In this document: piece after piece, positions 4,004 to 35,187 of the stretch
Layout: each line of letters opens with the position of its first letter
Numbering within the stretch: position 1 is the first letter of the stretch
Assembly: GCA_030613445.1 (NCBI GenBank)
Contig: JAUWLY010000001.1
Span: 1 to 36,940 of the forward strand
Direction of reading: 5' to 3'
Source: Candidatus Stahliibacteriota bacterium
GTDB taxonomy: Bacteria > Hydrothermota > Tepidihabitantia > SM23-42
Length of the DNA: 36,940 nt
The notes under the pieces: generated by a model
What the model was told of the DNA's origin: nothing
The model's input: only the letters and a program-made list of their open reading frames with translations
Databases searched by the model: none
Made by a program: the position numbers and the translations under genes

Positions 4004-4192
4004 TCATTGCGCAACATAGTGTAAAGACCTTCCTTTCCCAGAACTTCTAAGAACCCCTAATTTTACAAGTTTCTTGATTTCTTTCAGAGCACCTTCATCC
4101 GAAAGTTTAAACAGCTTCCTGGTAGGTAGGTTTTTCATATACCACACTTCATCTTGTCTTTTATCGAACCACTTCGTAAACAATCCATGCAA
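4004..4192 (-). CDS. small winged-helix-like protein, possibly a gene remnant
   Basis: 62-aa ORF with TTG start and no clear RBS. The C-terminal LKEIKKLVKLGVLRSSGKGRSLHYV looks like a wHTH recognition region. Its first ~23 codons plus upstream DNA are duplicated at 5575..5711. Confidence 0.3.
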   Translation of the reverse strand: MHGLFTKWFDKRQDEVWYMKNLPTRKLFKLSDEGALKEIKKLVKLGVLRSSGKGRSLHYVAQ

Positions 4193-4260
4193 TTATTACA
4201 AAGATAATAATAATTATACCGTAGCTCATTATTTCTCTGCGCCTCATTTTCCTTTTCACT
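4124..4260 (+). repeat. 137-bp direct repeat, copy A (pairs with 5575..5711)
   Basis: Hand alignment gives about 8 mismatches over 137 bp with 5575..5711. Covers the 5' end and upstream region of ORF 4004..4192. Confidence 0.9.
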
Positions 4261-5574: not shown

Positions 5575-5711
5575 AGGTAGGTTTTTCATATATCACACTT
5601 CTTCTTGTCTTTTATCGAACCACTTCGTAAACAATCCATGCAATTATTACAAAGATAATAATAATTATACCCCAACTCATTATTTCTCTGCGCTTCATTT
5701 TTCTTCTCACT
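5575..5711 (+). repeat. 137-bp direct repeat, copy B, with truncated copy of the 4004..4192 gene start
   Basis: Near-identical to 4124..4260. In this copy the reading frame (TTG CAT GGA TTG TTT ACG AAG TGG TTC GAT AAA AGA CAA GAA GAA GTG TGA) stops after 16 codons. Confidence 0.9.
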
Positions 5712-10754: not shown

Positions 10755-10763
10755 TCACCACTC

Positions 10764-10792
10764 ATTATACTATATATAGTATCACCTGTCAA
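10764..10792 (-). promoter_or_regulatory. promoter of the hicAB-secB-like operon (near-leaderless)
   Basis: Minus strand: TCTTGACA (-35 at 10792-10787), 17 nt, TATAAT (10769-10764). Only 9 nt separate the -10 from ATG 10754. Confidence 0.7.
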
Positions 10793-11138
10793 GATATTTT
10801 ATATAAAATCCATGAAAAATAGAGCCTTTTTCTGGTGAGATCCGTTTTCTAATACACTCTTTTCGTGTTATTCTGCTCTCACTCCCATTCACCGTCATAT
10901 TACTCACTCCCCCTTCTTACTCGCGAATTTCCGCCTATGCTATTATCCACAAATTACCGCATTAGTCAATAATCCCCACTAACCAAAACAAAAAAGGCAT
11001 AGCCCCTTAACCACCAAACACACGTAGATACAGCTAAGGCAACTACACCTTTGTGGATTTTTCCAAACCTGCTACTTAGTTAAAAAATCCGTCATACCCG
11101 TTCTGTCTCCAGAACGGTTCTCATACCTTCTCAATCAA

Positions 11139-11166
11139 ATTATATGTATTATTTATTAGATGTCAA
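11139..11166 (-). promoter_or_regulatory. orphan promoter plus leader module (no downstream ORF)
   Basis: Minus strand: CTCTTGACA, 16 nt, TATAAT, then TTGATT-GAGAAGGTATGAG. The same GAGAAGGTATGA leader start follows the two ORF6N promoters. Followed by an 8-bp hairpin CCGTTCTG-GAGA-CAGAACGG (11117-11098) and T6 (11087-11082). Confidence 0.55.
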
Positions 11167-11345
11167 GAGACTTAAGAGTAAAAGCGTCCCGGTGAAACAT
11201 TTGACTCACGGGATAAATAAACCGTACACCACCCGCTTCGCGGAAATGTGGCATGCATTCTGTTGAAGATACGCCTTCGGCTGGAAGACATGCTTCGCTG
11301 AAGAAAAGAACTAAATAGACCAGGCAAACTAAAGAGTTAAACCTA

Positions 11346-11374
11346 TTGATATTGGATGGTGTCTAATGTATAAT
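11346..11374 (+). promoter_or_regulatory. promoter of the TonB-dependent-receptor-like gene
   Basis: TTGATA (11346-11351), 17 nt, TATAAT (11369-11374). The -10 overlaps the first ATG of the long ORF (11366), which argues for the ATG at 11390 as the start. Confidence 0.6.
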
Positions 11375-13843: not shown

Positions 13844-13965
13844 CGTCCCGGCAGAAAAAAGATTCCACCCCGAATGCTATTGCTACGGGGCAGACAGGAT
13901 AAATAGGGCGAGAAGCGAAAAGAAATGACCGTAGACAGAAAAACAAAGAATGAAGCGTAGGGCAT

Positions 13966-13988
13966 CCCGCTGCTCAAAGAGCAGCGGG
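13966..13988 (+). terminator. 10-bp hairpin (H1 repeat module), possible terminator of 11390..13843
   Basis: CCCGCTGCTC-AAA-GAGCAGCGGG followed by ATAAATCTTCTT, a weak U-tract. Part of the recurrent GCGTAGGGCRTCCCG...CGGGATAAAT module. Confidence 0.4.
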
Positions 13989-14072
13989 ATAAATCTTCTT
14001 ACTCTATCTCCGATACACCGGTACGCCGTTACTCCGATACTGCCCTTTCAAGGTGAACACCTGGTACCCGTG
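13986..14072 (+). repeat. R-C repeat, short copy (pairs with 27939..28078 and 35029..35168)
   Basis: GGGATAAATCTTCTTACTCTATCTCCGATACACCGGTACGCCGTTACTCCGATACTGCCCTTTCAAGGTGAACACCTGGTACCCGTG is near-identical to the 3' 86 bp of the other two copies. Confidence 0.9.
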
Positions 14073-14131: not shown

Positions 14132-15226
14132 ATGGCAATAGAATTTCATTGTAGAGAATGCGATCAAATCATTGTTATAAAATACTTAAAACCTGGTGAA
14201 CAGGCAAAGTGCCGGAATTGCGGTGCAGAAAATATTATACCCGCGGATGCCACTGAGACAGATAAAGATCCTGAATATTACAAAATACCTCCCAAATATC
14301 ACAAAACATATCCGATCGAAAAACAAAGCGATATCGTCGAAGTAGATGTGCCAAGTAAACCTCGCAAACCTTTCCCGGGTTTTTTGCAAACTTTATTGCT
14401 ATTTTTCTATTACTTTGCAGGATGTATTATTTTACTTGTCAGTATCATTATCATCGGTAAAATCATTGGTCAACCGATACATAAAGACCCCATTATTATA
14501 TTTTTTGTTGCATCTGCAGCATGGGTCCTAATCCTGTACGCTGGCTATACGAACGTGAAAGAGACTTTTAAAACAGTTTTTTCATTAAAAGCATTTAAGT
14601 GGCTGCCTTTAGTACTAATTTGCCTCATGATGCTGGGCTTACGAGGATGTGTTGTCGGAATTGGATCGATTGCCATTAAACTGAATCCCCAGATTGAAGA
14701 ATTGAGTAGAATATTGATGGAGGACCTTGTAAAAATATATGCCCAGGGATTCATATGGTCATTTTTACTCATAGTCATTATTGCTCCGATATCGGAAGAG
14801 TTGTTTTTTCGGGGTTTGCTCTTACGCGGGTATCTGAAAAGATACTCTACCCCAGCAGCGATCCTTGTCACAGCACTTTTATTTGGCCTTATGCACGTTC
14901 AATACATAACGATAATATCGGGTTTTATTTCGGGGTTATTATTAGCCTGGCTGTATCTATTAACCCGTTCCCTTTGGCCTTGCATAATAGCGCATAGTTT
15001 CACTAACCTAACTGCAATAATAGTTTTTTATGGACTGTACAACCCTGCAATATTAAATGGCGCATCAATGGATAAAAATATCCTTGCTGAACTTATACTC
15101 ATTGCAATCGGTGTCGTGATGTGCACGGTTGGTATCGGGATTTTAATCAAGACTCCCCTAAAAAAGGAATTGGATCCCCCGATCCCTTCGACATATAACT
15201 CAGGACTACAGCAAGTCGGGGGATGA
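14132..15226 (+). CDS. CPBP-family intramembrane glutamic endopeptidase (CAAX protease-like) with N-terminal zinc ribbon
   Basis: 364 aa. CRECDQ...CRNCG zinc ribbon, multiple TM helices, and CPBP motifs SEELFFRG, FGLMHV and IAHSFTN. The last ~20 codons are homologous to an intergenic repeat (see findings). Confidence 0.8.
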   Translation: MAIEFHCRECDQIIVIKYLKPGEQAKCRNCGAENIIPADATETDKDPEYYKIPPKYHKTYPIEKQSDIVEVDVPSKPRKPFPGFLQTLLLFFYYFAGCIILLVSIIIIGKIIGQPIHKDPIIIFFVASAAWVLILYAGYTNVKETFKTVFSLKAFKWLPLVLICLMMLGLRGCVVGIGSIAIKLNPQIEELSRILMEDLVKIYAQGFIWSFLLIVIIAPISEELFFRGLLLRGYLKRYSTPAAILVTALLFGLMHVQYITIISGFISGLLLAWLYLLTRSLWPCIIAHSFTNLTAIIVFYGLYNPAILNGASMDKNILAELILIAIGVVMCTVGIGILIKTPLKKELDPPIPSTYNSGLQQVGG

Positions 15227-15333
15227 CAGTACCTGCAAGTCCCCCTGATTGACTCCCGCTGCGCGGCGAGTGATTACGTAATTAGTAATTGAGTAACTGG
15301 GTAATTAAATAAACACCCTCACCCACTCACCGG

Positions 15334-17822: not shown

Positions 17823-17877
17823 TCCGGCGCCGCGACACAAGTGAACAGGTGAACACCTGGTACTCGTACCCATAACG

Positions 17878-17944
17878 ACAGATGATAGATACTAGATGCT
17901 TGATGCTAGTAAAAGAACTGGATTCCCGTTTTCACGGGAATGAC
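17878..17944 (+). repeat. heptamer array plus H2 hairpin module
   Basis: CAGATGATAGATACTAGATGCTTGATGCTAGTAAAAGAACTGGATTCCCG-TTTTCA-CGGGAATGAC. The 7-bp stem is at 17922-17941. Confidence 0.8.
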
Positions 17945-17975
17945 TGCATACTGAAACCGTGTTGCGTGGGACCTC

Positions 17976-18003
17976 TTGACTTTAATACACTGGTAGATAA
18001 TAA
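17976..18003 (+). promoter_or_regulatory. promoter for 18037..18765
   Basis: TCTTGACT (-35 at 17976-17981), 16 nt, TAATAA (17998-18003). Confidence 0.55.
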
Positions 18004-18036
18004 TAATAACAGTATTAAATGAATAGGAGGTTTTTT

Positions 18037-18765
18037 ATGTTAGCTAAGAAATATTTACTAATAATCATGTTGGCTTTAATAGGTATTGCTCTTGTTTTCA
18101 CCTCTCCTTTGTATGCGGAAGAAAATCAAGATAACTGGACCAAGATATTTAATGTAGAAAAGACGCGCTTTCATCACACAGGCAGTAATCCATATTTCAA
18201 GCTGGAACCAGGTTATTATCTCATTCTTAATGGACAAGATGGTGAACAAAGGATAAAACTCATTGTAGCTGTACTCTTTGAAACAAAAATGATTGATGGG
18301 GTTGAAACCAGAATGGTTGAGGAAAAAGAGTTTCACAATGGGATGCTGGCAGAAATATCAAGAAATTTCTTTGCGATAAATACCGTGACAAACAGTATCT
18401 ATTACTTTGGCGAAGAAGTTGACATATACAAAGACGGCAAAGTCGTAAATCATGAAGGTGCGTGGGAATCAGGTGTAGATGGAGCGCACTTTGGATTAAT
18501 GATGCCGGGCGTTGTATTACTGGGTGCTAAGTATTATCAGGAGACCGCTCCAGACATTGCCATGGATAGAGCTGAAATAATCAGTATGACAGAAACTGTC
18601 GAGACACCATTAGAAACATTCTCGAATTGTTTAAAAATTGAAGAAACTACTCCTCTGGAGCCAGGAGCAAAGGAGTATAAATATTTTCGTGCTGGAGTCG
18701 GACTTGTAAAAGACGGACCGCTTGATTTAACAGAAAAAGGAACGGTAAAAGACAGTCGACGGTAG
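18037..18765 (+). CDS. secreted protein, function unknown
   Basis: ORF 18019..18765. ATG 18037 is preferred: AGGAGG at 18025-18030 with a 6-nt spacer, and the product begins MLAKKYLLIIMLALIGIALVFTSPLYA (signal peptide). No family recognised. Confidence 0.65.
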   Translation: MLAKKYLLIIMLALIGIALVFTSPLYAEENQDNWTKIFNVEKTRFHHTGSNPYFKLEPGYYLILNGQDGEQRIKLIVAVLFETKMIDGVETRMVEEKEFHNGMLAEISRNFFAINTVTNSIYYFGEEVDIYKDGKVVNHEGAWESGVDGAHFGLMMPGVVLLGAKYYQETAPDIAMDRAEIISMTETVETPLETFSNCLKIEETTPLEPGAKEYKYFRAGVGLVKDGPLDLTEKGTVKDSRR

Positions 18766-18897
18766 ACCGTAAATAGAGAGAAGAGCGTTGAGCGTAGGGC
18801 GTCCCGCTTCGCGGGAAGAACCAAGATAAATGTCAAAAGGAAGAAGTTCAAAGATCAAGAGTGAAATAAACGAGAAAAATCAACACACTGAACCTTC

Positions 18898-18927
18898 TTG
18901 ACATAGATGGTTTTTATGTTGTATAAC
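18898..18927 (+). promoter_or_regulatory. promoter for 18944..19435
   Basis: TCTTGACA (-35 at 18898-18903), 18 nt, TATAAC (18922-18927), then AAGGAGGAAGA-ATG. Confidence 0.55.
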
Positions 18928-18943
18928 AAAAAAAGGAGGAAGA

Positions 18944-19435
18944 ATGAAGAAAGTCGTGACAATCCTTGTGATGTTGTTTATTATTTCACCTTTGTTTGCA
19001 AAAGCGGCAAAAAGGCCATTGATTGAACTCGGACCAAAAGGCACACTTTACATCAATGGTGGAGTTGATTTCGGTCTTGGTGTTGAAGTTGTGATTAATC
19101 CATTGGAAAATGTTGGTTTCAGGGTCAATCTAACTGAAATCATTTTTGATCCCACGACATTCTATTTTAATCGTGATGGTTCAATTGATGCGTTCATATA
19201 TATCCCATTACAGAACATGCAATTGTATGCACTTGTAGGTGTTGGCTTGAAAACTCACGATACAGGAACTGGTACACAAACACATTATTCAATTAGCGGC
19301 GGGTTAGGTTTGAATTATCCCTTAAATCCAAAAACAAGTCTTTTTGCCGAACCTGCAGTTATCATTTCAGGTAACGGCGACACTGATGTATCATTTCGTG
19401 TATCTGCAGGAGCAAGGTTCCGCATTATTAAGTAA
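18944..19435 (+). CDS. small outer-membrane beta-barrel-like protein
   Basis: 163 aa. Signal peptide MKKVVTILVMLFIISPLFAKA. Alternating hydrophobic beta-strand pattern with G-rich turns (GVGLKT, GGLGLNY, SAGARFRI). Family not verified. Confidence 0.5.
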   Translation: MKKVVTILVMLFIISPLFAKAAKRPLIELGPKGTLYINGGVDFGLGVEVVINPLENVGFRVNLTEIIFDPTTFYFNRDGSIDAFIYIPLQNMQLYALVGVGLKTHDTGTGTQTHYSISGGLGLNYPLNPKTSLFAEPAVIISGNGDTDVSFRVSAGARFRIIK

Positions 19436-19485
19436 GAGAAAAGACAGTAAGCAGTAGAGCGTAAACAGGACACGCGGCGAAGGGG

Positions 19486-21441
19486 TTAACGAATTTTGAT
19501 TATTTTCTTTGTTATTACGCCGTCAATTTCTATGAAGTAGACACCTGGTGCGGGGTTGGAGGTGTGCACCTGGCGTCCGGTGATATCGAAGATCTTGTAT
19601 GTTTTGTCTTCAGGCAGTTGCAGTGGTCCAACAACAATCGTGGCAGTAATCGGTTTTTCTTGCACTGGTTTTGCAATAACCTCTTTGACACCTGGTACAC
19701 CATCAAATAATTCATTCCATGAATACCACTGCTTTACCTGAGTGTGAGCTGCTCTATAACAGCGCGCATAGCTTACACCAACGCAGGGCCAATCAGGATT
19801 CTCAATGGCAACGTTCGGACGAATCACCATGGAGCGGTAGGTACAACCGCCGGATCCAAAATCATACGTGATTGCCACGGAATTTGCTATCCTCATGATG
19901 CGCTGGGTAGTCAAATGATAATCTGCATTGAGCGAATCAGCAATTCGTTGGTATCGCCAGCAGCTAATCGGTGGATAGAGCAGGCGGTGATGGTTGGTCA
20001 CGGCAAGATTCCAGGATGAGCTAATTGGTGGCGGAATATAGTTATGCGACACGAAACGCATAGTATCCGCAATATGATTGATCTCAAGAATTGCCGCTGG
20101 GACAGGATGTGCGGCATCATATGATGAGTAACAATGAATATCATTCGAACGCCCATGTTCGGAGTGGATTTTCATTGAATCTATATCATAAATATCATGC
20201 ACACCACTGGCATCCGGGTCTATCAACTCAATGGCAAAGCGGCTCGATAAATAATCACCGAGTAAGGAATTGGGAGGTATAGAGTTCGTGTCAGGATGAT
20301 TACCTGTATTCTGGCCCAACCCAACACCACTTTCATTAAGACATGAGGATGCGCCAAAAACACCTGCCATGGTCACATTAAAGAACCGTTGCTCATTAGG
20401 ATCGCTGGATGAATAGGCAATGATCAAAGAAACATTTGCTAGTGTCGTATATAAACCCATCCGGCCATCGACATTTCGGGCAATGATGAATCCACCCTGT
20501 AAGGTATCGTCATTAGCGGTTGATTGTCCCCAACCAGAAAGACTTGAACAACCAAAAGTGGTCGTATCACCGCCCCCAGTTATCGCAAGCAAATCCTCTG
20601 TTGTCAAATCTCTGGCCAGAGTAGGATGATAAAGGCTTACTCCTTTAGCAGGTATGCCATCTATTACACCCTGTGCTTCATCCTGAAATTTTTGTGGCAC
20701 ATAATACTTTTCGCGGAACCAGGGAAGGTAGTCATTCTCATAGGAAGTTGGTGTTATTGCATGGTAGCTGGTATTTCCAATCCACTTATGGATATACACT
20801 GCCATTATTTCTTCAGCAAGTAAATAGCCATGGGCAAAACCCATTTCATAATTAGAGCCCCAGACCTGCAAATATTTTTGCGACGGCGGTCCTTTGGTGC
20901 GGAGCCGACCATTGCATACAACTGGTTGTGATGTAATGTCAGGAAGCGTGATATCATCAAGCCCGATACCTGCCTGTAAAGGTATGCGGCGTATTCTGAA
21001 GGCGATATACACTGGAGTCCCGGAGTAGCTGGACAATGAAACGGTCCGCTCGGTCCACGTTGAATCAGTAAGCAAAAATGTCTGCACAACATTGAAAGTC
21101 GGCATTTGGGGTGTTGAAGCGGTCGATACCATGATATCAAGTGAGCATGGGGTCGTACTTGTTGCTACGTACCAGAACCGAACTAATGTATCACTGAACT
21201 GAGGCAGGACACGCGGTGTGATCAGATAATCCAGGTTGGTATGGGAAAGTCCAGTATATGTTGTGTCATAGTAGCACGTTGCGGCATATACACCAGAATG
21301 TCCCTGGCACAGAGTGCGATACCACACAGCATCCAGAGCATCCTCATTAACGATAATCCAATTATCCGGAGGGAAATAGTTCTGTGTTTCAAAGGTTTCG
21401 GTCCAGGTACTGCAAAGGATCAAGGTCAGTATTGTTATCAT
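19486..21441 (-). CDS. T9SS-sorted protein: choice-of-anchor-J-like N-domain plus C45-like Ntn-hydrolase domain (paralog 1)
   Basis: 651 aa. VWGSNYEMGFAHGYLLAEEI and FGCSSLSGWG...GGFIIARNVDG resemble peptidase C45 / isopenicillin-N acyltransferase-like motifs (G.xYE.G..HG; GC[ST][ST]...RN.D). CTD KIFDITGRQV...PGVYFIEIDG...KKIIKIR. Confidence 0.7.
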   Translation of the reverse strand: MITILTLILCSTWTETFETQNYFPPDNWIIVNEDALDAVWYRTLCQGHSGVYAATCYYDTTYTGLSHTNLDYLITPRVLPQFSDTLVRFWYVATSTTPCSLDIMVSTASTPQMPTFNVVQTFLLTDSTWTERTVSLSSYSGTPVYIAFRIRRIPLQAGIGLDDITLPDITSQPVVCNGRLRTKGPPSQKYLQVWGSNYEMGFAHGYLLAEEIMAVYIHKWIGNTSYHAITPTSYENDYLPWFREKYYVPQKFQDEAQGVIDGIPAKGVSLYHPTLARDLTTEDLLAITGGGDTTTFGCSSLSGWGQSTANDDTLQGGFIIARNVDGRMGLYTTLANVSLIIAYSSSDPNEQRFFNVTMAGVFGASSCLNESGVGLGQNTGNHPDTNSIPPNSLLGDYLSSRFAIELIDPDASGVHDIYDIDSMKIHSEHGRSNDIHCYSSYDAAHPVPAAILEINHIADTMRFVSHNYIPPPISSSWNLAVTNHHRLLYPPISCWRYQRIADSLNADYHLTTQRIMRIANSVAITYDFGSGGCTYRSMVIRPNVAIENPDWPCVGVSYARCYRAAHTQVKQWYSWNELFDGVPGVKEVIAKPVQEKPITATIVVGPLQLPEDKTYKIFDITGRQVHTSNPAPGVYFIEIDGVITKKIIKIR

Positions 21442-21457
21442 AGGATATCCAGTTTTT

Positions 21458-21486
21458 AATTATGTCTCTAGGGGAGGGGATGTCAA
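21458..21486 (-). promoter_or_regulatory. promoter for 19486..21441
   Basis: Minus strand: CCTTGACA (-35 at 21486-21481), 17 nt, ATAATT (21463-21458). Confidence 0.65.
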
Positions 21487-21584
21487 GGGACCGCTAAAGC
21501 TGGAGTATGGAAGTTACAGAGTATCGGAGATACGGAGAAACACAAAAAAGAATAGTCCTTGGTCATTTTTGAAATATTGAATAA

Positions 21585-23540
21585 TTATCTTATTTTAATA
21601 ACTTTTTGAATTATCTGCCCGTCGATCTCTATGAAATAGATCCCTGGTGCGGGGTTATGGGTGTGCACCTGGCGCCCGGTGATATCATAGATCTTGTAAA
21701 TACCATCTTTTGGCATTTGTAATGGTCCGGATACAATAGTCGCCATGGGCATAGTTTTCTTTATAGGTTTCTGAACCACTTCTGCGACGCCTGGCACCCC
21801 GTCAAATAATTCATTCCAGGAATACCATACTTTACCCTGGGTATGGGCGGCTCTATAGCAGCGTGCGTAACTAACGCCAACACATGGCCAGTCTGGATGC
21901 TCGATTGCTATATTCGGACGTATAACCACGGAATGATAGGTACCACCACTCGTGCCTGAATTGTAACCTCGTGCAACCGTGTTGGCGATTGTCATTGCCC
22001 GCTGTGTGCTCAAATGAAAATCTGCGTTGAGCGAATCAGCGAGACGCAGGTAACGCGAGCAAAAAACCGGCGCGTAAAGCAAGCGGTCATGATTTGTTAC
22101 TGCGAGGTTCCATGCTGAGTTTATGGGTGGTGGTATGTAATTATGCGAAGCAAATCGCAGCGTGTCAGCAATATTATTGATTTCAAGAACCGCGCCTGGG
22201 ATGGGATGGGGTGCATCATAAGAAGAATAACAATGAATATCATTTGAACGTATATGCTCGGAATGGATTTTCATCGAATCGATATCGTAAATATCATTCA
22301 CACCGCTGCCATCCGGGTCTATCGCTTCAATTGCCAGCCGGTTCGCTAAAAGAGCACCAAGCAGCGAGTTCGGTGGTATCGCATTTGTGTCCGGATGATT
22401 ACCAGAATTGCTGCATAATCCTACTCCGTGCTCATTAAGACACGAAAAGACACCGAATACTCCGGCAAAGCTTACATTAAAAAATCTCTGCTCATTGGGA
22501 TCACTCGGCGAATAAGCAATTATCAGCGAACCATTGGCAAGAGTCATGTAAAGGCCAACTGTTCCATCGACGTTTCTTGCAATTATATAACCGCCCTGCA
22601 GGGTATCGTCACTGCTCGTTGATTCGCCCCATCCGGATAGACTCGAGCATTCAAAATCCTCTTCGTCGCCGGCGCCAGTCAATACGAGTATATCCTCGGC
22701 GATCAAATCCCTGTCCAGAGCCGGGTGATAAAGACTCACACCTTTAGCCGCAATACCGTCAATTACACCCTGGCCTTCTTCCTGAAATTTTGCCGGGATA
22801 TAGTACTTTTCGCGATACATAGGAAGATAAGTATATTCATAATACTCTGGGGTTACCGAATGATAGCTGGTATATCCTATCCATTTGTTTAGGTATACAC
22901 TCATGACCTCTGAAGCATGCAAATAGCCATGAGCAAAACCCATTTCATAATTAGAACCCCAGACCTGCATGTATCTTTGCGATGGTGGTCCTTTGGTGCG
23001 GAGCCGACCATTGCATACAACAGGCTGTGATGTAATATCAGGAAGTGTGATATCATCAATCCCGATAGCTGCCTGCAAAGGTATGCGGCGTATTCTGAAG
23101 GCAATATAGATCGGCGTCCCGGTGTAGCTAGATAATGAAACGGTCAGCTCGGTCCATGCTGAATCAGCAAGCAAGAATGTCTGGACACTACTGAACGTCG
23201 TCATGTCGGGTATTGATGCGGTCGATACCATGATATCAAGCGAGCATGGAAAGGTACTTGTTGCCATGCACCAGAACTGAACTAATGTATCACTGGACTG
23301 AGGCAGGACACGCGGTGTGATCAGATAATCCAGGTTCGTATGGGAAAGTCCACTATATGTTGTATCATAGTAGCATGTTGCAGCATACACACCAGAATGT
23401 CCCTGGCACAGACTGCGATACCACACAGCGTCTAGTGCGTCCTCGTTGACTACAAGCCAGTTATCCGGCGGAAAATAATTTTGTGTTTCAAAGGTTTCGG
23501 TCCAGGCACTGCAAAGGATCAAGGTCAGTATTGTTATCAT
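21585..23540 (-). CDS. T9SS-sorted choice-of-anchor-J-like plus C45-like Ntn-hydrolase protein (paralog 2)
   Basis: ORF 21585..23594 trimmed to ATG 23540 (MITILTLILCSAW...), the same N-terminus as paralog 1. The extension would start inside the promoter (23559-23587). Collinear with 19486..21441 and clearly paralogous (high identity by eye). Confidence 0.7.
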   Translation of the reverse strand: MITILTLILCSAWTETFETQNYFPPDNWLVVNEDALDAVWYRSLCQGHSGVYAATCYYDTTYSGLSHTNLDYLITPRVLPQSSDTLVQFWCMATSTFPCSLDIMVSTASIPDMTTFSSVQTFLLADSAWTELTVSLSSYTGTPIYIAFRIRRIPLQAAIGIDDITLPDITSQPVVCNGRLRTKGPPSQRYMQVWGSNYEMGFAHGYLHASEVMSVYLNKWIGYTSYHSVTPEYYEYTYLPMYREKYYIPAKFQEEGQGVIDGIAAKGVSLYHPALDRDLIAEDILVLTGAGDEEDFECSSLSGWGESTSSDDTLQGGYIIARNVDGTVGLYMTLANGSLIIAYSPSDPNEQRFFNVSFAGVFGVFSCLNEHGVGLCSNSGNHPDTNAIPPNSLLGALLANRLAIEAIDPDGSGVNDIYDIDSMKIHSEHIRSNDIHCYSSYDAPHPIPGAVLEINNIADTLRFASHNYIPPPINSAWNLAVTNHDRLLYAPVFCSRYLRLADSLNADFHLSTQRAMTIANTVARGYNSGTSGGTYHSVVIRPNIAIEHPDWPCVGVSYARCYRAAHTQGKVWYSWNELFDGVPGVAEVVQKPIKKTMPMATIVSGPLQMPKDGIYKIYDITGRQVHTHNPAPGIYFIEIDGQIIQKVIKIR

Positions 23541-23558
23541 AGAAATCTCCAGTATGTA

Positions 23559-23587
23559 AATTATGGTCCTATTGGATGAAATGTCAA
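23559..23587 (-). promoter_or_regulatory. promoter for 21585..23540
   Basis: Minus strand: CCTTGACA (-35 at 23587-23582), 17 nt, ATAATT (23564-23559). Same layout as the paralog's promoter. Confidence 0.65.
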
Positions 23588-23601
23588 GGGACACAAAACG
23601 A

Positions 23602-23676
23602 CAGATATTAGATACGAGATGCTTGATGCTAGAGAAGAATAGTAATTAAGTAACTAAGTGATTATTTCACCCCTCA
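23602..23676 (+). repeat. heptamer array plus AGTAATTAAGTAACT...TTTCACCCCTCA module
   Basis: CAGATATTAGATACGAGATGCTTGATGCTAGAGAAGAATAGTAATTAAGTAACTAAGTGATTATTTCACCCCTCA. Close copy at 34654-34720 and a looser one at 15263-15331. Confidence 0.8.
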
Positions 23677-23777
23677 AATAACGTCTAGCACCCCATCTTG
23701 AAGTCGCAAAATGCGACTTCAAGTGTTTGCATTCACTCCTCGTAAGGGGGTATTTTTATATCTGACGCAGGTTTCAA

Positions 23778-23805
23778 TTGACATCCCATTACTGCTAGCT
23801 ATACT
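23778..23805 (+). promoter_or_regulatory. promoter for 23826..24470
   Basis: TTGACA (23778-23783), 16 nt, TATACT (23800-23805). AGGAGG then ATG 23826. The ORF-track ATG at 23808 is only 2 nt past the -10. Confidence 0.65.
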
Positions 23806-23825
23806 TTATGTCAAAAGGAGGTCTG

Positions 23826-24470
23826 ATGGTTGTCTATTTATGTCGCAAAGTGATGTTGGCCGCGCTGCTTATACTGGTTTTGATATGTTTCATTCAAGCA
23901 CAGACAGAAGAAGTAGAGGAAATCAAGTTCCATCCCACCGAGTATCAACAAATAAAGATTGATTCGATAAAAGCATGTGCAGTGGCAGATAAGTTTGAAG
24001 AAATTAAACCCACATTGGAGGAGTTATTTTCAAAAACACCTGGAGACATAGATGCATTAGTACAAATCATTTTTTTTGAGGTAATGAAGGATGAGCTTAA
24101 GAACTTAGAAGAAGCCATGCAAACGCTCCATGAAATGAATGAGATGAAAAAACGTCAGCGCGCTTATATAGAGGAATTAAAGAAAAAAAGGACTGCAGTG
24201 AGGGATTCTCTGCGCAAAGGATATGAAGAAATACATGCTTCACTGGATGAAGTAGAAACAATGCTGCGTGATTCGCCACAACTTCAAGAGATTCAAGGAC
24301 AAATACATCAGGTAGAGTTAGAATTGAATTCCACAGAAGAAGAATCTGAATCGATGAATTTACGTTTACAAATAATGATGGACGAACGCAACAAAACAAT
24401 ACAGAACCTGTCAAATATTCTTGAAATAGATGATGACATACGTGACAAGATAATAAAAAATCTTAAATAA
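23826..24470 (+). CDS. secreted coiled-coil protein, function unknown
   Basis: ORF 23808..24470 trimmed to ATG 23826 (MVVYLCRKVMLAALLILVLICFIQAQ signal peptide). The rest is E/K/L/Q-rich heptad-like sequence. Confidence 0.6.
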   Translation: MVVYLCRKVMLAALLILVLICFIQAQTEEVEEIKFHPTEYQQIKIDSIKACAVADKFEEIKPTLEELFSKTPGDIDALVQIIFFEVMKDELKNLEEAMQTLHEMNEMKKRQRAYIEELKKKRTAVRDSLRKGYEEIHASLDEVETMLRDSPQLQEIQGQIHQVELELNSTEEESESMNLRLQIMMDERNKTIQNLSNILEIDDDIRDKIIKNLK

Positions 24471-24610
24471 AACAATTTAGTGCATATGGGGGCCTCTCAT
24501 TTTATTCCCCGTAGCTACGCGACGGGGCCTCTCGCTATGCTCGAGATTTACAACAGGCGATATCTTCGACCTCTCACTACACTCGAGATCTTCGACAGGC
24601 AGCGATGCAA

Positions 24611-24717
24611 CAGCAGATCTTAGATACTAGAATGAGTTGTGAGGGTCAGGTCTTGACCCCGTACGATTAACATTCTACGGGGCAGGCTTAGAGACATAAG
24701 CAATGAAGCGTAGGGCG
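24611..24717 (+). repeat. 107-bp repeat, copy 2 (pairs with 15436..15542)
   Basis: Near-identical to 15436..15542. Contains the H3 hairpin CCCCGTA-12 nt-TACGGGG (24657-24682) and the GGGTCA-GGTCT-TGACCC inverted repeat. Confidence 0.9.
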
Positions 24718-24826
24718 TCCCGGAGGAATAGGATTCCACAAGACAGCGTAGGACGTTGAGCAAGAAGAAAATAGGTGTTAAAGCCTTTGTCCATTTATTA
24801 GCGTCTAATTAATGAGGAGGTAAAAA

Positions 24827-26308
24827 ATGTTTTCTAAATCACGGTATTTCACTTGTGTTTTAATGATATTGTTGCCATGGTTTTTAGTAGCTCAGTCTAA
24901 TTATCAAGTGATTGACACAGGTCAAGACCAATGCTTTAATGATAGCATTGAAATATCTCCACCAAATCCAGGTGAACCGTTTTTTGGTCAGGATGCACAA
25001 TACAATGGTACGCAATTCTCTTTTCAAGATAATGGTGATGGCACGGTGACTGACTTAAATACCGGCATGATGTGGCAACAAACACCAGACCTCGATAATA
25101 AGTCCACCTGGGCAGAGGCTGTGGCAGGTGCAGACACCTTTATTCTTGCGGGCTATGATGATTGGCGCTTACCTCATATCAAGGAGCTTTACTCACTCAT
25201 TGATTTCCGAGGTTCAAGCATGGACACGATACCTTATATAGACACAACCTTCTTTGATTTTGAGTGGGGCGATACAACCCAAGGTGAACGTCTAATCGAC
25301 GCCCAATACTGGTCCAGCACAGAGTACGTGGGACTGACCATGAATGGCGATGCCACGGCATTTGGAGTCAACTTTGCAGATGGTCGGATAAAAGGGTATC
25401 CAACAGAAACCGGACCAGGAGGTCAACCCTTTGAAGCCTTTGTCCGTTACGTACGGGCTGGCAACAATTACGGCGTGAATAACTATTTTGATAACGGAGA
25501 TGGCACGATCACTGATTCATCAACTGGATTAATGTGGAAGCAGATTGATGATGGTGTGACGCGTAACTGGGAAGAAACACTCGCTTATGCAGAGAATATG
25601 ACACTGGCAGGTTATGATAACTGGCGCTTGCCAAATGTAAAAGAACTCCAGAGCATTGTCGACTATACCCGCGCTCCTGATGCGCAAAATCCAGGACAGC
25701 AAGGTCCAGCAATTGATACAATTTTTGACGTTACTGAAGAAGAATCATTTTTCTGGACAAGTACAACCCTTTTGGAAGCGCCACCTGATGCAGGAACTGG
25801 AAGTGAGGGTGTATATATCGCTTTTGGTCAAGCCTGGGGCTATATGGGACCTCCAGGTAATGGCGAATGGCTCAATGTCCATGGTGCAGGAGCACAGCGA
25901 AGTGATCCAAAATCTGGTGATCCTGGCAACTATCCTTATGGCCGTGGTCCTCAAGGAGATGAAGTCCGTATCTTTAACTATGTACGCTGTGTTCGTAGAG
26001 GATTGACTAATATTAATGAAGGAAAATCTGAATCCTTGAGAAGCTCAATGATATGTCAGAATACTCCGAATCCCTTTCGCAGTGAAACAATTATTGGTTT
26101 TCAACTCTCAGAACCAGATCATGTACGGATTACTTTATACAACACTGTCGGTCAGAAAATCAAAACTATTTTGGATGACAATAAACCTGCTGGGTTTCAT
26201 ACTGTTATTTTCGAAGCCAATAATCTGGCAAATGGTGTGTATTATTATTGCCTGGAAACGAGCAAGGAGAAACAATTCAGGAAAACAGTACACTGCGAAG
26301 AATACTAA
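24827..26308 (+). CDS. DUF1566 (Lcl C-terminal-like) repeat protein with T9SS sorting domain
   Basis: 493 aa. Two DNGDGT(V/I)TD..TGLMW(Q/K)Q ... AGYD(D/N)WRLP..KEL units typical of DUF1566. CTD QNTPNPFRSETIIGFQL...ITLYNTVGQKI...NGVYYYCL. RBS GAGGAGG. Confidence 0.8.
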   Translation: MFSKSRYFTCVLMILLPWFLVAQSNYQVIDTGQDQCFNDSIEISPPNPGEPFFGQDAQYNGTQFSFQDNGDGTVTDLNTGMMWQQTPDLDNKSTWAEAVAGADTFILAGYDDWRLPHIKELYSLIDFRGSSMDTIPYIDTTFFDFEWGDTTQGERLIDAQYWSSTEYVGLTMNGDATAFGVNFADGRIKGYPTETGPGGQPFEAFVRYVRAGNNYGVNNYFDNGDGTITDSSTGLMWKQIDDGVTRNWEETLAYAENMTLAGYDNWRLPNVKELQSIVDYTRAPDAQNPGQQGPAIDTIFDVTEEESFFWTSTTLLEAPPDAGTGSEGVYIAFGQAWGYMGPPGNGEWLNVHGAGAQRSDPKSGDPGNYPYGRGPQGDEVRIFNYVRCVRRGLTNINEGKSESLRSSMICQNTPNPFRSETIIGFQLSEPDHVRITLYNTVGQKIKTILDDNKPAGFHTVIFEANNLANGVYYYCLETSKEKQFRKTVHCEEY

Positions 26309-26400
26309 AAACCAGGAACCAGGAAAAGCGAAGAGCGAAAAGGCACAGCAGGTGGGGTCAAATCCCCAGTATACACGATAACGAGGGCAGGCAATAACGG

Positions 26401-26469
26401 CAGATGTTAGATACTAGATACTTGATGCTAGTAAAAGAACTGGATTCCCCGATCGCGTCGGGGAATGAC
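26401..26469 (+). repeat. heptamer array plus H2 hairpin module
   Basis: CAGATGTTAGATACTAGATACTTGATGCTAGTAAAAGAACTGGATTCCCCGA-TCGCG-TCGGGGAATGAC. The 9-bp stem is at 26444-26466. Confidence 0.85.
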
Positions 26470-26552
26470 AAATCAAGGGATGGCGGTAAAAGGCCCTCGC
26501 TGTACTCGCGGGATAAATATGAGAAGTGAACAGGTGAACACCTGGTATACTC

Positions 26553-27214: not shown

Positions 27215-27721
27215 TTATTCTTTGCTAAAACCGATTTTGCGTTTCGCTTTCTCAGGTGGAATCATGAGCTGTCGGATAGCTTCGAATACCGCCTTAAACT
27301 GAACGTCATATTTTTTCTCAAGAGCATCAATTTTTCGCATAAGATCTTTATGCGTTGCTAATACTTCTCGTAGCCTAATAAATGTCCTTACAACCAGTAC
27401 GCTTGTTTGAACAGCTATTTGACTGTTCAATACCGAAGCAAGCATAACTGCACCGTGCTCAGTAAATGCATATGGTAGATATGGTGCATATTTGAGAGAA
27501 CTAAGGTGGTCGCAATTTGCGACCACTTCTTGTTTCTCTTCTTTGGTAAGTTGAAACATAAAATCAATGGGAAACCTTCGTTTATTCCGTCTGACTTGCT
27601 CATTTCACCTTTTTGTCGACACTCCATAGAGCTTTGCTAGATCTCTATCTATTATAACCTTGTGACTACGGATAATCAAAATCTTTTTTTCTATAATTTC
27701 TTGTGATATGGTTTTCTTCAT
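27215..27721 (-). pseudogene. ORF6N/KilA-N-like DNA-binding protein gene interrupted by one in-frame TGA
   Basis: ORFs 27605..27802 (from ATG 27721, MKKTISQEIIEKKILIIRSHKV...LYGVSTKR) and 27215..27559 are in the same frame. A single TGA (27605-27607) replaces the Leu of the paralog (ETRVLIQAVKRN vs STKR*NEQVRRN). Collinear with 28860..29378. Confidence 0.65.
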
Positions 27722-27817
27722 TTTACTACTTTCCTCCTTTTCTACAGAATTAAAATAATAAAGATATGAACCACTACAGCATGATGCTGCAAAGCGTTTC
27801 ATACCTTCTCGGTACTG

Positions 27818-27865
27818 ATTATATCCAGGGGTTTGATAAAGTCAAGACGCCGCTTGAGCGGCGTC
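27818..27865 (-). promoter_or_regulatory. hairpin-plus-promoter junction module for the interrupted ORF6N gene
   Basis: Minus strand: GACGCCGC-TCAA-GCGGCGTC hairpin (27865-27846) abuts TTGACT (27845-27840), then 16 nt and TATAAT (27823-27818), followed by a ~95-nt leader starting GAGAAGGTATGAA. Confidence 0.7.
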
Positions 27866-27938
27866 GATTGCGGTGATAAACAGAAAAATTACAGAGATTG
27901 CTTCGTCCTTCGATAAACTCAGGACTCGCAATGACCCC

Positions 27939-28078
27939 GATATCTTCGACGAGACTTACAGCCTTTCGCCCTGCTCAAGATTTACAGCAGACGGGATAGA
28001 TCTTCTTAGTCTATCTCCGATACACCGGTACGCCGTTACTCCGATACTGTCCTTTCAAGGTGAACACCTGGCACTCAC
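27939..28078 (+). repeat. R-C repeat, 140-bp copy (pairs with 35029..35168; 3' part with 13986..14072)
   Basis: GATATCTTCGACGAGACTTACAGCC...AGATTTACAGCAGACGGGATAGATCTTCTTAGTCTATCTCCGATACACCGGTACGCCGTTACTCCGATACTGTCCTTTCAAGGTGAACACCTGGCACTCAC. About 90 percent identical by eye to 35029..35168. Confidence 0.9.
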
Positions 28079-28125
28079 GCCCAACATTAGGATAAAAGCG
28101 TAGCACGAAGTACATAGGGTGATCA

Positions 28126-28863
28126 TTAGTAGGCATATTTTTTGATGATTGCGGAGGTTATGTAGTGGCTGACGATTGTGGTCTTTAAATTGCTGTATTC
28201 TAATTTTAATCTCTGTGCTTCGATAACATTTTTTCTGGTTAAATATAAACCGGTATACTGGTGATAATAACCATCAGTTTCGTGTTGGAACCAGTGGTGT
28301 GCTATGCTAAAACCGCCTTCACATGTAAGCCACAAAAGATTTGAATCAGGACGCTTAGAAAAATCACCACCATGATCGAAAGGACGTGCTCCTAAACGAG
28401 TTTTGGAGAAACCGACGTGCAGTGAATAGAGCCACATTCCTGCCTTTTTGTTCGGGCTGATGACTACATCTTTAATGTGCCATAATTTCTTTAATGCCTT
28501 ATTTATTGCAACTGAATCGGTCAGATTAATATATACTTTTTTGCCTTCGATAATAAAAGATCCATCGTCAACAGAGTAATTTTTCATATAATCGTCCATA
28601 AGTAACCATCTTTTAAAGTGTTCTAATTTTTCTTGTCGTCTTAGACTTTTTAAGATACTGTCAAGTCTTACTATTGTATTCACTCTTACTGCAACATCAT
28701 CTGCAAACCTTGCTTGTCGATTATCTCCACCATAATTGTTGACAAATATAGCATCAAAATATGCAGCATGCCATTTGCATTCCATTGTTGCAGTAGCATA
28801 AACAAGTGAGAGATTAAAAGGTAAAAGTAAAAGGTTAATACATATTTTTGCTAACTTGCTCAT
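28126..28863 (-). CDS. hypothetical exported/membrane-anchored protein, translationally coupled to ORF6N gene
   Basis: 245 aa. N-terminal hydrophobic segment KICINLLLLPFNLSLVYA. The start ATG overlaps the upstream TGA stop (ATGA, 28860-28863). No family recognised. Confidence 0.6.
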   Translation of the reverse strand: MSKLAKICINLLLLPFNLSLVYATATMECKWHAAYFDAIFVNNYGGDNRQARFADDVAVRVNTIVRLDSILKSLRRQEKLEHFKRWLLMDDYMKNYSVDDGSFIIEGKKVYINLTDSVAINKALKKLWHIKDVVISPNKKAGMWLYSLHVGFSKTRLGARPFDHGGDFSKRPDSNLLWLTCEGGFSIAHHWFQHETDGYYHQYTGLYLTRKNVIEAQRLKLEYSNLKTTIVSHYITSAIIKKYAY

Positions 28864-29378
28864 TTTTTTCTGTATTTATAAAATCCGATTCTTTTTTGCG
28901 GTTTTTTTGGTGGGGTCATAAGCTCGCGGATCGCATCGAATATCGCCTTGATTTCCACATCGTGCTTTTCTGTTTTTCGTTCGAGTTGGTCTAATTTGTG
29001 AACTAATTCTTTATGCGTAGATAGAATTTTGCGTAATTTTACAAAAGCACGCATTATGGCGATGTTAACTTGGATAGCCCTTCTACTTCGTAGAACACTG
29101 GAAAGCATCGCAACTCCCTGCTCTGTAAAGGCATAAACATTGGGCGCATGTTTGAGTTTTGAACTTATCACAAATTGTGATAAGTTTAATATCTCTGCTC
29201 GGGTTAATGAAAACATAAAATCATCGGGAAATCTCTCAATATTACGTTTTACAGCCTGAATTAACACTCTTGTTTCAACTTGATAAAGCTCAGCAAGGTG
29301 CGTACTGATCATTATCTTATGACCACGGATAACCAGTATATTTTCTTTGATTATTTCTTTTGGTACTATTTTTTTCAT
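28860..29378 (-). CDS. ORF6N/KilA-N-like DNA-binding protein (intact paralog)
   Basis: 172 aa. ILVIRGHKIMISTHLAELYQVETRVLIQAVKRNIERFPDDFMFSLTRAE...YAFTEQGVAMLSSVLRS..A..VNI.IMRAF fits the ORF6N domain pattern, followed by a coiled-coil tail. Confidence 0.75.
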   Translation of the reverse strand: MKKIVPKEIIKENILVIRGHKIMISTHLAELYQVETRVLIQAVKRNIERFPDDFMFSLTRAEILNLSQFVISSKLKHAPNVYAFTEQGVAMLSSVLRSRRAIQVNIAIMRAFVKLRKILSTHKELVHKLDQLERKTEKHDVEIKAIFDAIRELMTPPKKPQKRIGFYKYRKK

Positions 29379-29475
29379 TTTACTTCTTTCCTGCTTTTGT
29401 ACATTATGAAAATCATAAAGGTATGAACCACTTGCACCACCATGTTACAGAACCCTTCATACCTTCTCAGTGCTG

Positions 29476-29526
29476 ATTATATCTAAAGATTCAATAAAGT
29501 CAAGACGCCGCGGCGATTTCATCGCC
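29476..29526 (-). promoter_or_regulatory. hairpin-plus-promoter junction module for 28860..29378
   Basis: Minus strand: GGCGAT-GAA-ATCGCC hairpin (29526-29512) and the CGCCGCGGCG palindrome precede TTGACT (29503-29498), then 16 nt and TATAAT (29481-29476), then the leader GAGAAGGTATGAA. Confidence 0.7.
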
Positions 29527-29793
29527 TTCCACCACGCATAAAGGCGGACAGGCGCAATGACAAAACTAGATTCCCCGGTTAAACCGGAGAATGACAGAAG
29601 AGGATACGGGAAATGACCCCATTAGATGCTGCGTATCTAACGGGGTAAACGGGAGTCCCGCTGAAATAATATATTTCACCCCTCACCTTTTTCCTCTCCC
29701 CTCAAGGGGAGAGGAAATGTTCTGTAACAGATTCCAGAGGATGAATTTTTCTCTGAGAGTATTAGATATTCACCGAATTCTCCTTGCTGTTAA

Positions 29794-34509: not shown

Positions 34510-34535
34510 AAATCCTCCCCTTCTTAACATAGAAT

Positions 34536-34563
34536 AGTTTAAAGAAAATGGTGATTAAGTCAA
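34536..34563 (-). promoter_or_regulatory. promoter for 33346..34509
   Basis: Minus strand: TCTTGACT (-35 at 34563-34558), 16 nt, TAAACT (34541-34536). Confidence 0.5.
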
Positions 34564-35187
34564 GATAATGGATACTAGACCAGAGAGATTCCAGTCCATT
34601 ACACATCGTGTAACGAGACCAGGGATGCTAGACAAGATAGATGCTTGATACTAGATACTTGATGCTAGAAAAGAATAGTAATTGAGTAATTAAGTAACTG
34701 AGTGATTATTTCACCCCTCACCCATAACAACAGATGTTAGATACGAGATTCTTGATACTAGTAAAAGAAGTGGATTCCCCAGCTTCTATGAAATGGAGAC
34801 TGGGAGAAACGGAGAAGTGGAGTCCTGCCCGGAATGACAGAGAAAAAGGAACTGGATCCCCCGATCAAGTCGGAGGATGACAACGATATTATAGATCCCC
34901 CTGATCCCTTCGACATTTAACTCAGGACTACAGCAAGCCGTGGGATGACCCCATACGATTAACATCCTACGGGTTTCTCGTTACACTCGAGATGTTCGAT
35001 CTCTCACTAGATTCATCTCGCTGCCCTCGATATCTTCGACGAGACTTACAGCCTCTCGCTACACTCGAGATTTACAACAGGCGGGATAAATCTTCTTAGT
35101 CTATCTCCGATACACCGGTACGCCGTTACTCCGATACTGCCCTTTCAAGGTGAACACCTGGCACTCACTGTTAATGACTGTTATATT
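34564..35187 (+). repeat. ~620-bp intergenic mosaic made only of repeat modules
   Basis: In order: GATACTAGACCAGAGAGATTCCAG; heptamer arrays (34625-34670, 34731-34760); AGTAATTGAGTAATTAAGTAACT...TTTCACCCCTCACCC; H2 hairpins (34856-34878 and a decayed one near 34771-34838); a block homologous to the CPBP gene tail (34891-34949); a decayed H3 hairpin (34949-34974); the 140-bp R-C copy (35029-35168). Confidence 0.85.

Follow-up and report, generated by a model that had tools for sequence, protein, structure and literature searches.

The 36,940-nucleotide stretch of DNA analysed here (hereafter the window; positions 1 to 36,940 of contig JAUWLY010000001.1, assembly GCA_030613445.1) comes from the uncultured Candidatus Stahlbacteria (WOR-3) and carries three nearly identical copies of a short intergenic repeat, a family that we named R-C. 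The question raised by this locus is what kind of sequence stands in one and the same orientation between genes that lie on either strand. Our analysis suggests that R-C is a low-copy, lineage-restricted, non-coding mosaic repeat, most likely selfish or neutral, that spreads by short-homology copying and supplies direct-repeat homology at cassette boundaries, a reading to which we give an even chance of being correct. According to this reading, the R-C core would be copied into, or lost from, sites already bearing its flanking modules and would not move as a transposon, the likely route being gene conversion or replication template switching on ~10–25 nt of shared sequence, with octamer number changing by slippage. 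Co-oriented copies would constitute portable direct-repeat homology, and recombination between them may delete, insert or swap the intervening genes, mostly those for secreted and surface proteins; any role in expression (termination or insulation at gene ends) would be secondary.

Copies, gene settings and distribution

The original prediction of three repeat copies was confirmed to within a few bases, all on the plus strand and 91–98% identical. Copy 1 occupies 13984–14071 (+) and is made up of GGGATAAAT, core and tail, and copies 2 and 3, each with an upstream extension, were delimited by BLAST and nhmmer at 27925/27938–28078 (+; core unit 27991–28078) and 35017/35028–35168 (+; core unit 35081–35168). 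Self-BLAST of the window gave 97.6% identity over 84 nt between copies 1 and 3, 96% over 80 nt between copies 1 and 2, and 90.9% over 154 nt (including ~60 nt of common upstream sequence) or 92.9% over 141 nt between copies 2 and 3, with E-values of 4e-29 to 6e-48. A 35-nt array, CTCCGATACACCGGTACGCCGTTACTCCGATACTG, was identical in all three, with none expected in 100 shuffles even when 3 mismatches were allowed. The further upstream sequence predicted to be common to copies 2 and 3 was also found and measured ~55–65 nt. This extension is made up of ~40-nt tandem units (TCTCGCTACACTCGAGATNTTCGAC…) that occur at 34976–35083 and 24527–24601, each with a 5-bp stem (TCTCG/CGAGA).

The gene settings of the three copies were likewise as predicted. 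Copy 1 lies between plus-strand genes for a TonB-type outer-membrane protein and a CAAX protease, 141 nt past the stop codon of the former and 15 nt ahead of the −35 box (14087) of the latter. Copies 2 and 3 lie between minus-strand genes: copy 2 between an ORF6N fragment and a gene for a 245-aa protein, whose stop (28126) is 47 nt from its right end, its left neighbour being the promoter of a frameshifted ORF6N copy, and copy 3 between genes for a Kelch protein and a TPR protein, 19 nt from the stop of the latter (35188), as the last module of a 657-nt mosaic intergenic region (34531–35187). The ORF6N gene is itself duplicated (27215–27802 and 28860–29378), with the left copy split into two open reading frames (ORFs) and probably frameshifted, and its promoter region is duplicated as well (27777–27853 and 29435–29511, 78%). 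Copy 2 and the 245-aa gene sit between the two ORF6N copies, and the related contig L006 has a single ORF6N gene.

Related contigs were gathered through homologues of the CAAX protease, and an nhmmer profile census was run over the whole comparison set of ~215 kb. Among these relatives, L006/L007 share 93% amino-acid identity, and 89–95% nucleotide identity in common genes; amino-acid identity was 80% for L022, 65% for L010–L019 and 60% for L023–L026. Full R-C copies numbered three in the window, one in L001, one plus a shortened one in L006/L007, and one in L005, and tail-only copies were found twice in the window and also in L001, L006 and L022. Since L001 (a metagenome-assembled genome (MAG) from NCBI), L006/L007 (ENA; ERZ25749332 and ERZ25073603) and L005 (JGI) are independent assemblies, R-C is not an assembly artefact. 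An invariant R-C 20-mer occurred once in 596 Gb of sequence from 185,579 species-representative genomes (one per species), namely in L001, a Stahlbacteria MAG, and 241 M metagenome records yielded one true copy (L005); L002–L004 were rejected as chance 20-mer matches in unrelated coding DNA. IMG/VR viral contigs contained no match to R-C or to a second module, and a phage or viral origin was rejected on that ground. On the sequence evidence of the 20-mer search and the census, R-C is thus a young, very narrow, low-copy family that is clustered in one gene neighbourhood and is not genome-wide. It does extend beyond this contig, and the single copy in the only species-representative genome that has it does not describe a genome-wide polar element. 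Among nine papers that mention Stahlbacteria, none has a title or abstract dealing with intergenic repeats.

Anatomy of the repeat

Boundaries were taken from an alignment of nine copies and two tail-only sites together with the nhmmer census. Aligned with its flanks, the R-C unit is ~86 nt long and reads GGGATAAAT CTTCTTAGTCTAT CTCCGATA CACCGGTA CGCCGTTA CTCCGATA CTGYCCTYTCA AGGTRAAYACCTGGYACYC. By sequence it is a composite of three parts, namely the 3′ arm and tail of a hairpin, an octamer core and a tail. On the left, GGGATAAAT belongs to a recurrent terminator-like hairpin, module S, of which it represents the 3′ arm and the U-rich tail; the module has the layout GCGTAGGGCGTCCCG-(loop)-CGGGATAAAT. 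At copy 1 this hairpin (13964–13990, +) is a perfect inverted repeat with a 12-bp stem, ATCCCGCTGCTC/GAGCAGCGGGAT, followed by AAATCTTCTT; it was labelled terminator-like after the TonB-type gene by our scan, and the ~9 nt with which R-C begins are supplied by its 3′ arm and tail. The fold z of R-C was −3.9 once the S hairpin was included, and this separate hairpin is the sole inverted repeat near copy 1.

The core is ~56 nt of C-rich, unstructured sequence with four imperfect 8-nt units. Autocorrelation delimited the array CTCCGATA CACCGGTA CGCCGTTA CTCCGATA CTG at 35102–35141 and also at 14005–14044 and 28012–28051 (all +), with values of 0.66 at lag 8 and 0.58 at lag 16, no other lag exceeding 0.29. 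Six full copies show no variation in the array, and eight flanking positions vary.

The tail, ~27 nt long (GTGAACAG GTGAACAC CTGG…), usually adjoins the next gene boundary, and in its lone form, AAGTGAACAGGTGAACACCTGGTA, consists of two more octamers overlapping a short palindrome. Its word AGGTGAACACCTGG occurs five times in the window, always on the plus strand, in comparison to 0.01 expected; two of the occurrences, at 17847 and 26532, stand without a core and confirm the sub-words that had been predicted at 17841 and 26526. They belong to a tail-only copy, AAGTGAACAGGTGAACACCTGGTACTCGT (17839–17867, +), 17 nt past the stop of an LVIVD gene, and to an 'empty' R-C, CGGGATAAAT + ATGAGAAGTGAAC + AGGTGAACACCTGGTATACTC (26509–26552, +), adjoining the stop codon of the minus-strand cREC gene; 17839–17862 and 26524–26547 are 100% identical. 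A 12-bp palindrome, AGGTGAACACCT, is kept in five window copies and is preserved in L005 through a double change (GGTGAACACC to GGTAAATACC). It is broken by a single change in the L006 orthologue of copy 1 and is degenerate in L006 at 18978. Tail hairpins were weak and inconsistent (−5 to −11 kcal/mol, z = +0.8 to −2.5), and with the palindrome broken in L006 a strong terminator role for the tail was rejected.

A small RNA gene or structured cis-regulatory RNA would account for strong sequence conservation across genomes, and the palindrome-preserving double change in L005 speaks in its favour. We consider it highly improbable, as neither strand of the core folded more stably than shuffles (z = +0.69 and +0.38), the hairpin of the tail is weak and inconsistent, and the L006 orthologue carries the palindrome-breaking change. 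Rfam gave no matches over the whole window at the gathering threshold or at E ≤1, no conserved promoter or terminator was found around the copies, and among the settings are antisense 3′ regions and a spacer that is flanked by divergent promoters and not transcribed. Three other functions were rejected outright: a protein-coding mini-ORF (a single open frame, the 76-aa ORF 27873–28103, with all between-copy differences non-synonymous and no common start), a sigma-54 promoter at TGGCAC (wrong GG-to-GC spacing in all copies) and a sigma-70 promoter (none consistent across copies).

Composition raises the alternative of a polar cis-element, in which the C-rich core would be a candidate Rho-utilisation (rut)-like site, or an insulator, halting transcription that runs on along the plus strand just ahead of the following gene boundary (a promoter or the 3′ end of a convergent gene). 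Of the 58 nt of the core, 20 are C and 8 are G (34% and 14%), the core is less structured than shuffles, and C minus G over 78 nt falls in the 89th–95th percentile of the window, so that composition and lack of structure fit a rut site (C-rich, G-poor, unstructured, ~60–80 nt). R-C is also 'right-justified': for copy 1, its L006 orthologue and the L001 copy, 3–15 nt separate the tail from a −35 box, and for copies 2 and 3 and the second copy in L006, 17–47 nt separate it from the stop codon of a convergent gene. On the left, the gap to the neighbouring gene can be anything from 0 to ~650 nt. Three copies follow co-oriented genes, and the invariance of the octamer array would be expected of a functional site. 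However, copies 2, 3 and that of L001, about half of all copies, have no plus-strand promoter or gene, and hence no co-oriented transcription unit, upstream; the 8-nt periodicity is unlike the spacing of Rho primary sites; and close relatives have no core at all three orthologous sites compared below. This alternative is therefore judged clearly unlikely. The earlier argument against a simple untranslated-region or terminator role stands in so far as no single role suits all contexts, the core is unstructured and the L001 copy is placed between two divergent promoters.

Filled, tail-only and empty sites

Three orthologous sites were compared, at each of which the tail and the right-hand gene form the conserved anchor. 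Downstream of cREC, L006 has full core and tail and the window has only the tail. Upstream of the CAAX promoter, the window and L006 have full copies (the octamer ATACACCG is missing from the latter), L022 has the tail only, and the relatives at 60–65% identity have no tail. Downstream of TPR, the window is full and L001 has the tail only. At the cREC site, CGGGATAAAT on the left and AGGTGAACACCTGG on the right are common to both alleles, and the middle measures 13 nt in the window versus 56 nt in L006; the alleles are thus a replacement between common flanks and not a simple insertion.

Gene content differs at the same kind of junction. A six-gene block of 8.7 kb (17868–26523) is present in the window and absent from L006; in the window it is flanked by 24-nt identical direct copies of the tail (left 17839–17867, right 26509–26552), and L006 has one tail. 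The block encodes a 248-aa protein, an outer-membrane β-barrel protein, two tandem 650-aa paralogues, a 220-aa protein and an Lcl_C/type IX secretion system (T9SS) protein. The remaining module indels that distinguish the window from L006 either have a 9-nt direct repeat, GATACTAGA, at their borders or amount to the precise presence or absence of a 30-nt hairpin unit. As judged from sequence, these end states fit short-homology recombination or template switching together with slippage, and cut-and-paste transposition fits less well. R-C copies mark synteny breakpoints between close relatives, and we propose that they do so because recombination between copies exchanges the genes they enclose.

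A further difference concerns the Kelch gene (window 33346–34881; L006 18703–20227). Its middle part cannot be matched at nucleotide level between window and L006, which suggests an allele replacement. In addition, a module block of 167 nt (89% identical and in the same orientation) is found upstream of this gene in the window and downstream of it in L006.

The tails at these junctions can also be interpreted as an array of protein-binding sites, to whose octamers or AGGTGAACACCT palindrome a regulator, a nucleoid protein or, in an att-like manner, a site-specific recombinase would bind. Regular 8-nt units and the 12-bp palindrome, present in five window copies and kept through the double change in L005, are in line with such binding, as is the position of the tail exactly at cassette junctions, where direct tails bracket the 8.7-kb block like attL and attR. 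The distance to the −35 box nevertheless varies from 3 to 15 nt, an 8-nt spacing places successive sites on different faces of the helix, palindrome arms with a 2-bp spacer are unlike tyrosine-recombinase core sites, no recombinase or regulator gene is linked, and the palindrome is degenerate in L006 at 18978. We regard this interpretation as distinctly improbable.

Orientation and replication

The original prediction held that orientation follows the contig and not the flanking genes, and this proved true more widely than for R-C alone. Comparison of the gene-masked window with itself gave 26 direct and no inverted pairs of strong intergenic repeats at E <1e-3. The pairs connect eight intergenic regions, which lie in the right part of the window and have the gene contexts ++, ++, ++, −+, ++, +−, −− and −−, and if each region were oriented at random the chance of all eight agreeing would be ~2^-7. 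Tails and R-C copies in L001, L006 and L022 were also on the plus strand once the loci were oriented by their common genes. The inverted degenerate fragments that had been predicted do exist but are weak: a degenerate relative of the octamer array at 565–617 (−; 83% over 35 nt at 573–607, E = 6e-6 against intergenic DNA only) and a borderline, weakly similar GGAG/CTCC octamer array at 21502–21548 (−; 74% over 31 nt at 21502–21532, E ~0.02–0.04).

Uniform orientation regardless of gene strand would be expected of a miniature element mobilised in trans, with strand-specific insertion into single-stranded fork DNA in the manner of IS200/IS605 or RAYT, so that orientation follows replication, as originally proposed; a variant would be another site-specific system targeting GGGATAAAT^…^AGGTGAACACC. 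Elements of the IS200/IS605 type are without target duplication and inverted ends (PMC6006769). R-C resembles them in this respect, as no target duplication was found in the flanks of seven copies and no terminal inverted repeats of at least 8 nt at the ends of copies 2 and 3. The core always occupies the same niche between two modules, insertions within hairpin loops are seen elsewhere in the mosaic, R-C copies are highly identical across genomes, and all copies lie on one side of a switch at ~11 kb where both GC skew and gene strand change sign.

Several observations stand against such an element. Neither the window nor the related loci, ~215 kb in total, showed a transposase (including Y1/HUH and RAYT/IS200 types), an integrase or a reverse transcriptase. 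The left hairpin differs or is absent between copies, which leaves no subterminal structure conserved, a filled allele differs from an empty one by replacement and not by clean insertion, and the single representative genome with R-C has only one copy. The skew switch tracks gene strand and no cluster of DnaA boxes accompanies it. We consider a mobilised element possible but unlikely, and the earlier proposal of a directional insertion element found no support, R-C being built from separately occurring modules without ends of its own, inverted ends or target duplication.

The switch at ~11 kb was not used as a replication-origin anchor for orientation, given that near-matches to the DnaA box were at chance level and unclustered (13 versus 12.3 expected, with one perfect box at 10943) and that its neighbours are toxin–antitoxin and defence genes. 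A flip of module orientation between 1–10.7 kb and the right part of the window was also rejected: the module that flips most clearly, TGGGGTCAAA, takes its strand from the gene that precedes it, and CTCC/GGAG arrays of either orientation are found to the left as well as to the right of the switch. The 611-nt divergent intergenic region at 10755–11365 contains a promoter-like site on the minus strand and a strong hairpin (~11085–11110), and the same divergent switch is found just upstream of the CAAX gene in L006 and L010–L012. This region may be an origin or an island boundary.

Weighing the short-homology reading

Several points weigh against short-homology copying as the source of R-C. The recombination or template-switching mechanism is inferred from end states, with no intermediate observed, and the homology arms (~12 and 14–17 nt) are short for RecA-dependent exchange. 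The Kelch gene moved relative to its modules without a tail on the ABC side, and not every junction has a tail. Non-orthologous R-C copies in different genomes are 96–98% identical in comparison to 89–95% for orthologous coding DNA; this identity, and an invariant array next to eight variable flanking positions, could reflect selection on function or recent mobility, although the contrast comes from 86 nt and seven copies and is suggestive at most. Gene conversion alone leaves the co-orientation of all repeat families (26 versus 0) unexplained, as it does the constant plus-strand position of tails in gene-co-oriented loci, and the census is built on MAGs and short contigs.

Co-orientation would be producible by loop-out and loop-in at polar repeats or by replication-coupled template switching. 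In a further interpretation, recombination in a so far unrecognised WOR-3 cassette system takes place at the co-oriented tail and R-C sites. Multi-gene blocks of secreted and surface-protein genes would loop out and re-integrate at a polar site of ~27–86 nt, in an integron-like manner but with neither attC nor IntI features; the driving force would be a recombinase encoded elsewhere or single-strand exchange coupled to replication. Such a system, if real, would account for the uniform orientation as well as for the location at synteny breakpoints, yet we hold it to be improbable. Nothing found so far requires a new mechanism; the co-orientation and the association with breakpoints remain notable.

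Comparison with known repeat families

Mosaic repeats between genes are a familiar feature of Proteobacteria, Firmicutes and cyanobacteria. R-C belongs to this general class, and membership fails for the named families tested, with a mixed outcome for IS200/IS605 derivatives. In function and architecture the nearest known systems are BIME/REP, the Neisseria NIMEs with dRS3 and BOX, with STRR nearest for the short-period units.

Among IS200/IS605 derivatives, PATEs have conserved subterminal hairpins at both ends and insert strand-specifically 3′ of a fixed tetra- or pentanucleotide without target duplication. R-C agrees with them in its lack of target duplication and its uniform strand; its left hairpin is not conserved, its right palindrome is weak and no TnpA was seen.

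A REP unit is an imperfect palindrome of 20–40 nt that forms a hairpin and has a conserved guide tetranucleotide at its 5′ end, and two REPs in inverted orientation make up the basic unit of a BIME (PMC6006769). Like the BIMEs and REPs of enterobacteria and pseudomonads (REPINs, RAYT/TnpA-REP), R-C is strictly extragenic, a mosaic of short motifs clustered at gene ends, shares its intergenic regions with hairpin modules and is tied to genome plasticity. In contrast to them, all its copies are direct and very few, and because it is neither palindromic nor arranged in inverted pairs it is not a REP or BIME; no cognate RAYT gene was seen in the ~215 kb.

NIMEs are intergenic mosaic units of 50–150 nt near surface-protein genes, thought to offer homology for gene replacement, and dRS3 is a 20-nt inverted repeat with the consensus ATTCCC-N8-GGGAAT. 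NIMEs with dRS3 repeats and 'minimal mobile elements' were reportedly described by Parkhill and colleagues in 2000 and by Saunders and Snyder in 2002. R-C is similarly a mosaic between genes, with a hairpin of dRS3 pattern (17922–17941) in the same intergenic regions. However, it occurs in another phylum, has an octamer array and uniform orientation, and, as it is not flanked by dRS3-type repeats, is not a NIME. The hairpins at 17922–17941 and 26444–26466 fit ATTCCC-N8/11-GGGAAT, the dRS3 pattern (the first with exactly N8); these are the two such hairpins in the window, in comparison to 0.12 expected, and neither flanks an R-C copy.

BOX of Streptococcus pneumoniae, a high-copy element with a stable fold and the form boxA-boxB(n)-boxC, is modular like R-C, varies in the number of internal units and has no transposase of its own; the variable unit of R-C, by contrast, is 8 nt (one being lost in L006), its core is unstructured and its copy number is low. 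The STRR of heterocystous cyanobacteria, near-perfect heptamer arrays amplified in place, resemble the intergenic arrays of 7–8-nt units of which the window has several, but in R-C the units are imperfect, and it is the entire array that has been dispersed, as a single conserved block.

MITEs such as Correia elements are also short, non-coding, dispersed and sometimes fused to gene ends, and related modules here form the C-termini of CAAX genes; R-C is not a MITE because it has no terminal inverted repeats and no target-site duplication. Integron attC sites are likewise co-oriented sites of ~60–140 nt at cassette boundaries, whatever the gene strand, the cassette content here differs between relatives, and the 8.7-kb block is bracketed by direct copies. 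R-C nevertheless lacks RYYYAAC/GTTRRRY core sites and the imperfect-palindrome fold of attC, for which reason it is not an integron site; the 'cassettes' here are 1.5–8.7 kb with several genes that have their own promoters, and no IntI or integrase domain was seen in the window.

R-C thus combines non-palindromic octamer arrays, nested hairpin modules, strict co-orientation and placement at gene-content junctions. If the repeats drive cassette gain and loss, they would give an uncultured lineage a means of turning over its T9SS-secreted and outer-membrane proteins rapidly, and would offer a practical marker of plasticity zones in MAGs. If only neutral repeat turnover is involved, this is an ordinary, though tidy, case of repeat-mediated rearrangement.

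The intergenic mosaic and other features of the window

Every sizeable intergenic region of the window is assembled from short recurring modules whose order differs between regions. They include arrays of 7–8-nt units (TAGATAC…, AGTAATTA…, GTGAACAG…, CTCCGATA… and CTCC/GGAG arrays) and hairpins (TGACCCCGTACGATTAACATTCTACGGGG; GGATTCCC…GGGAATGAC, the latter kind including the two of dRS3 pattern). Loops of the S module carry nested inserts, and in L001 a module sits within the loop of another hairpin. L020, a more distant WOR-3 contig, shows the same mosaic style with an older version of the S composite, and R-C is absent from it. In the window, GGATYCCCC…GGRGRATGAC hairpins related to those of dRS3 pattern were found at 29570, 34817 and 34852.

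Modules also reach into genes and their signals. The last ~14 codons of the CAAX gene 14132–15226 (15173–15227) derive from an intergenic module (93% to 34894–34949), and the 350-aa L006 orthologue has no such module-derived codons; in L005 (995–1016) a CAAX-like gene ends within another module, and the R-C copy begins with the TAG stop codon of that gene. The module TGGGGTCAAA(C/T)C, which often has a T-run behind it, occurs on the plus strand at 756, 2798, 3970, 5748 and 6820, on the minus strand at 26361, and in L001 at 3554 and 5301. It is always in gene sense and either overlaps the last codons or lies at most ~55 nt past the stop, and to judge by this placement it looks like a gene-linked 3′-end signal. 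Promoters across the window (e.g. 14087, 27845 and 34563) have an unusually uniform −35 box, TCTTGACA, and in two places, such as 27846–27865, a GC-rich hairpin, GACGCCGC-N4-GCGGCGTC, abuts this box, so that a terminator-like site overlaps the next promoter.

Apart from these modules, a 137-nt repeat (94%) occurs at 4124–4260 and 5575–5711 within a block of TIR, HNH and HicAB genes. On the minus strand (ORFs 4247→4161 and 5698→5612) it encodes a 28-codon hydrophobic ORF, M(R/K)RREIMS(Y/W)GIIIIIFVIIAWIVYEVVR*, which from its sequence looks like a small membrane peptide of the type-I-toxin kind.

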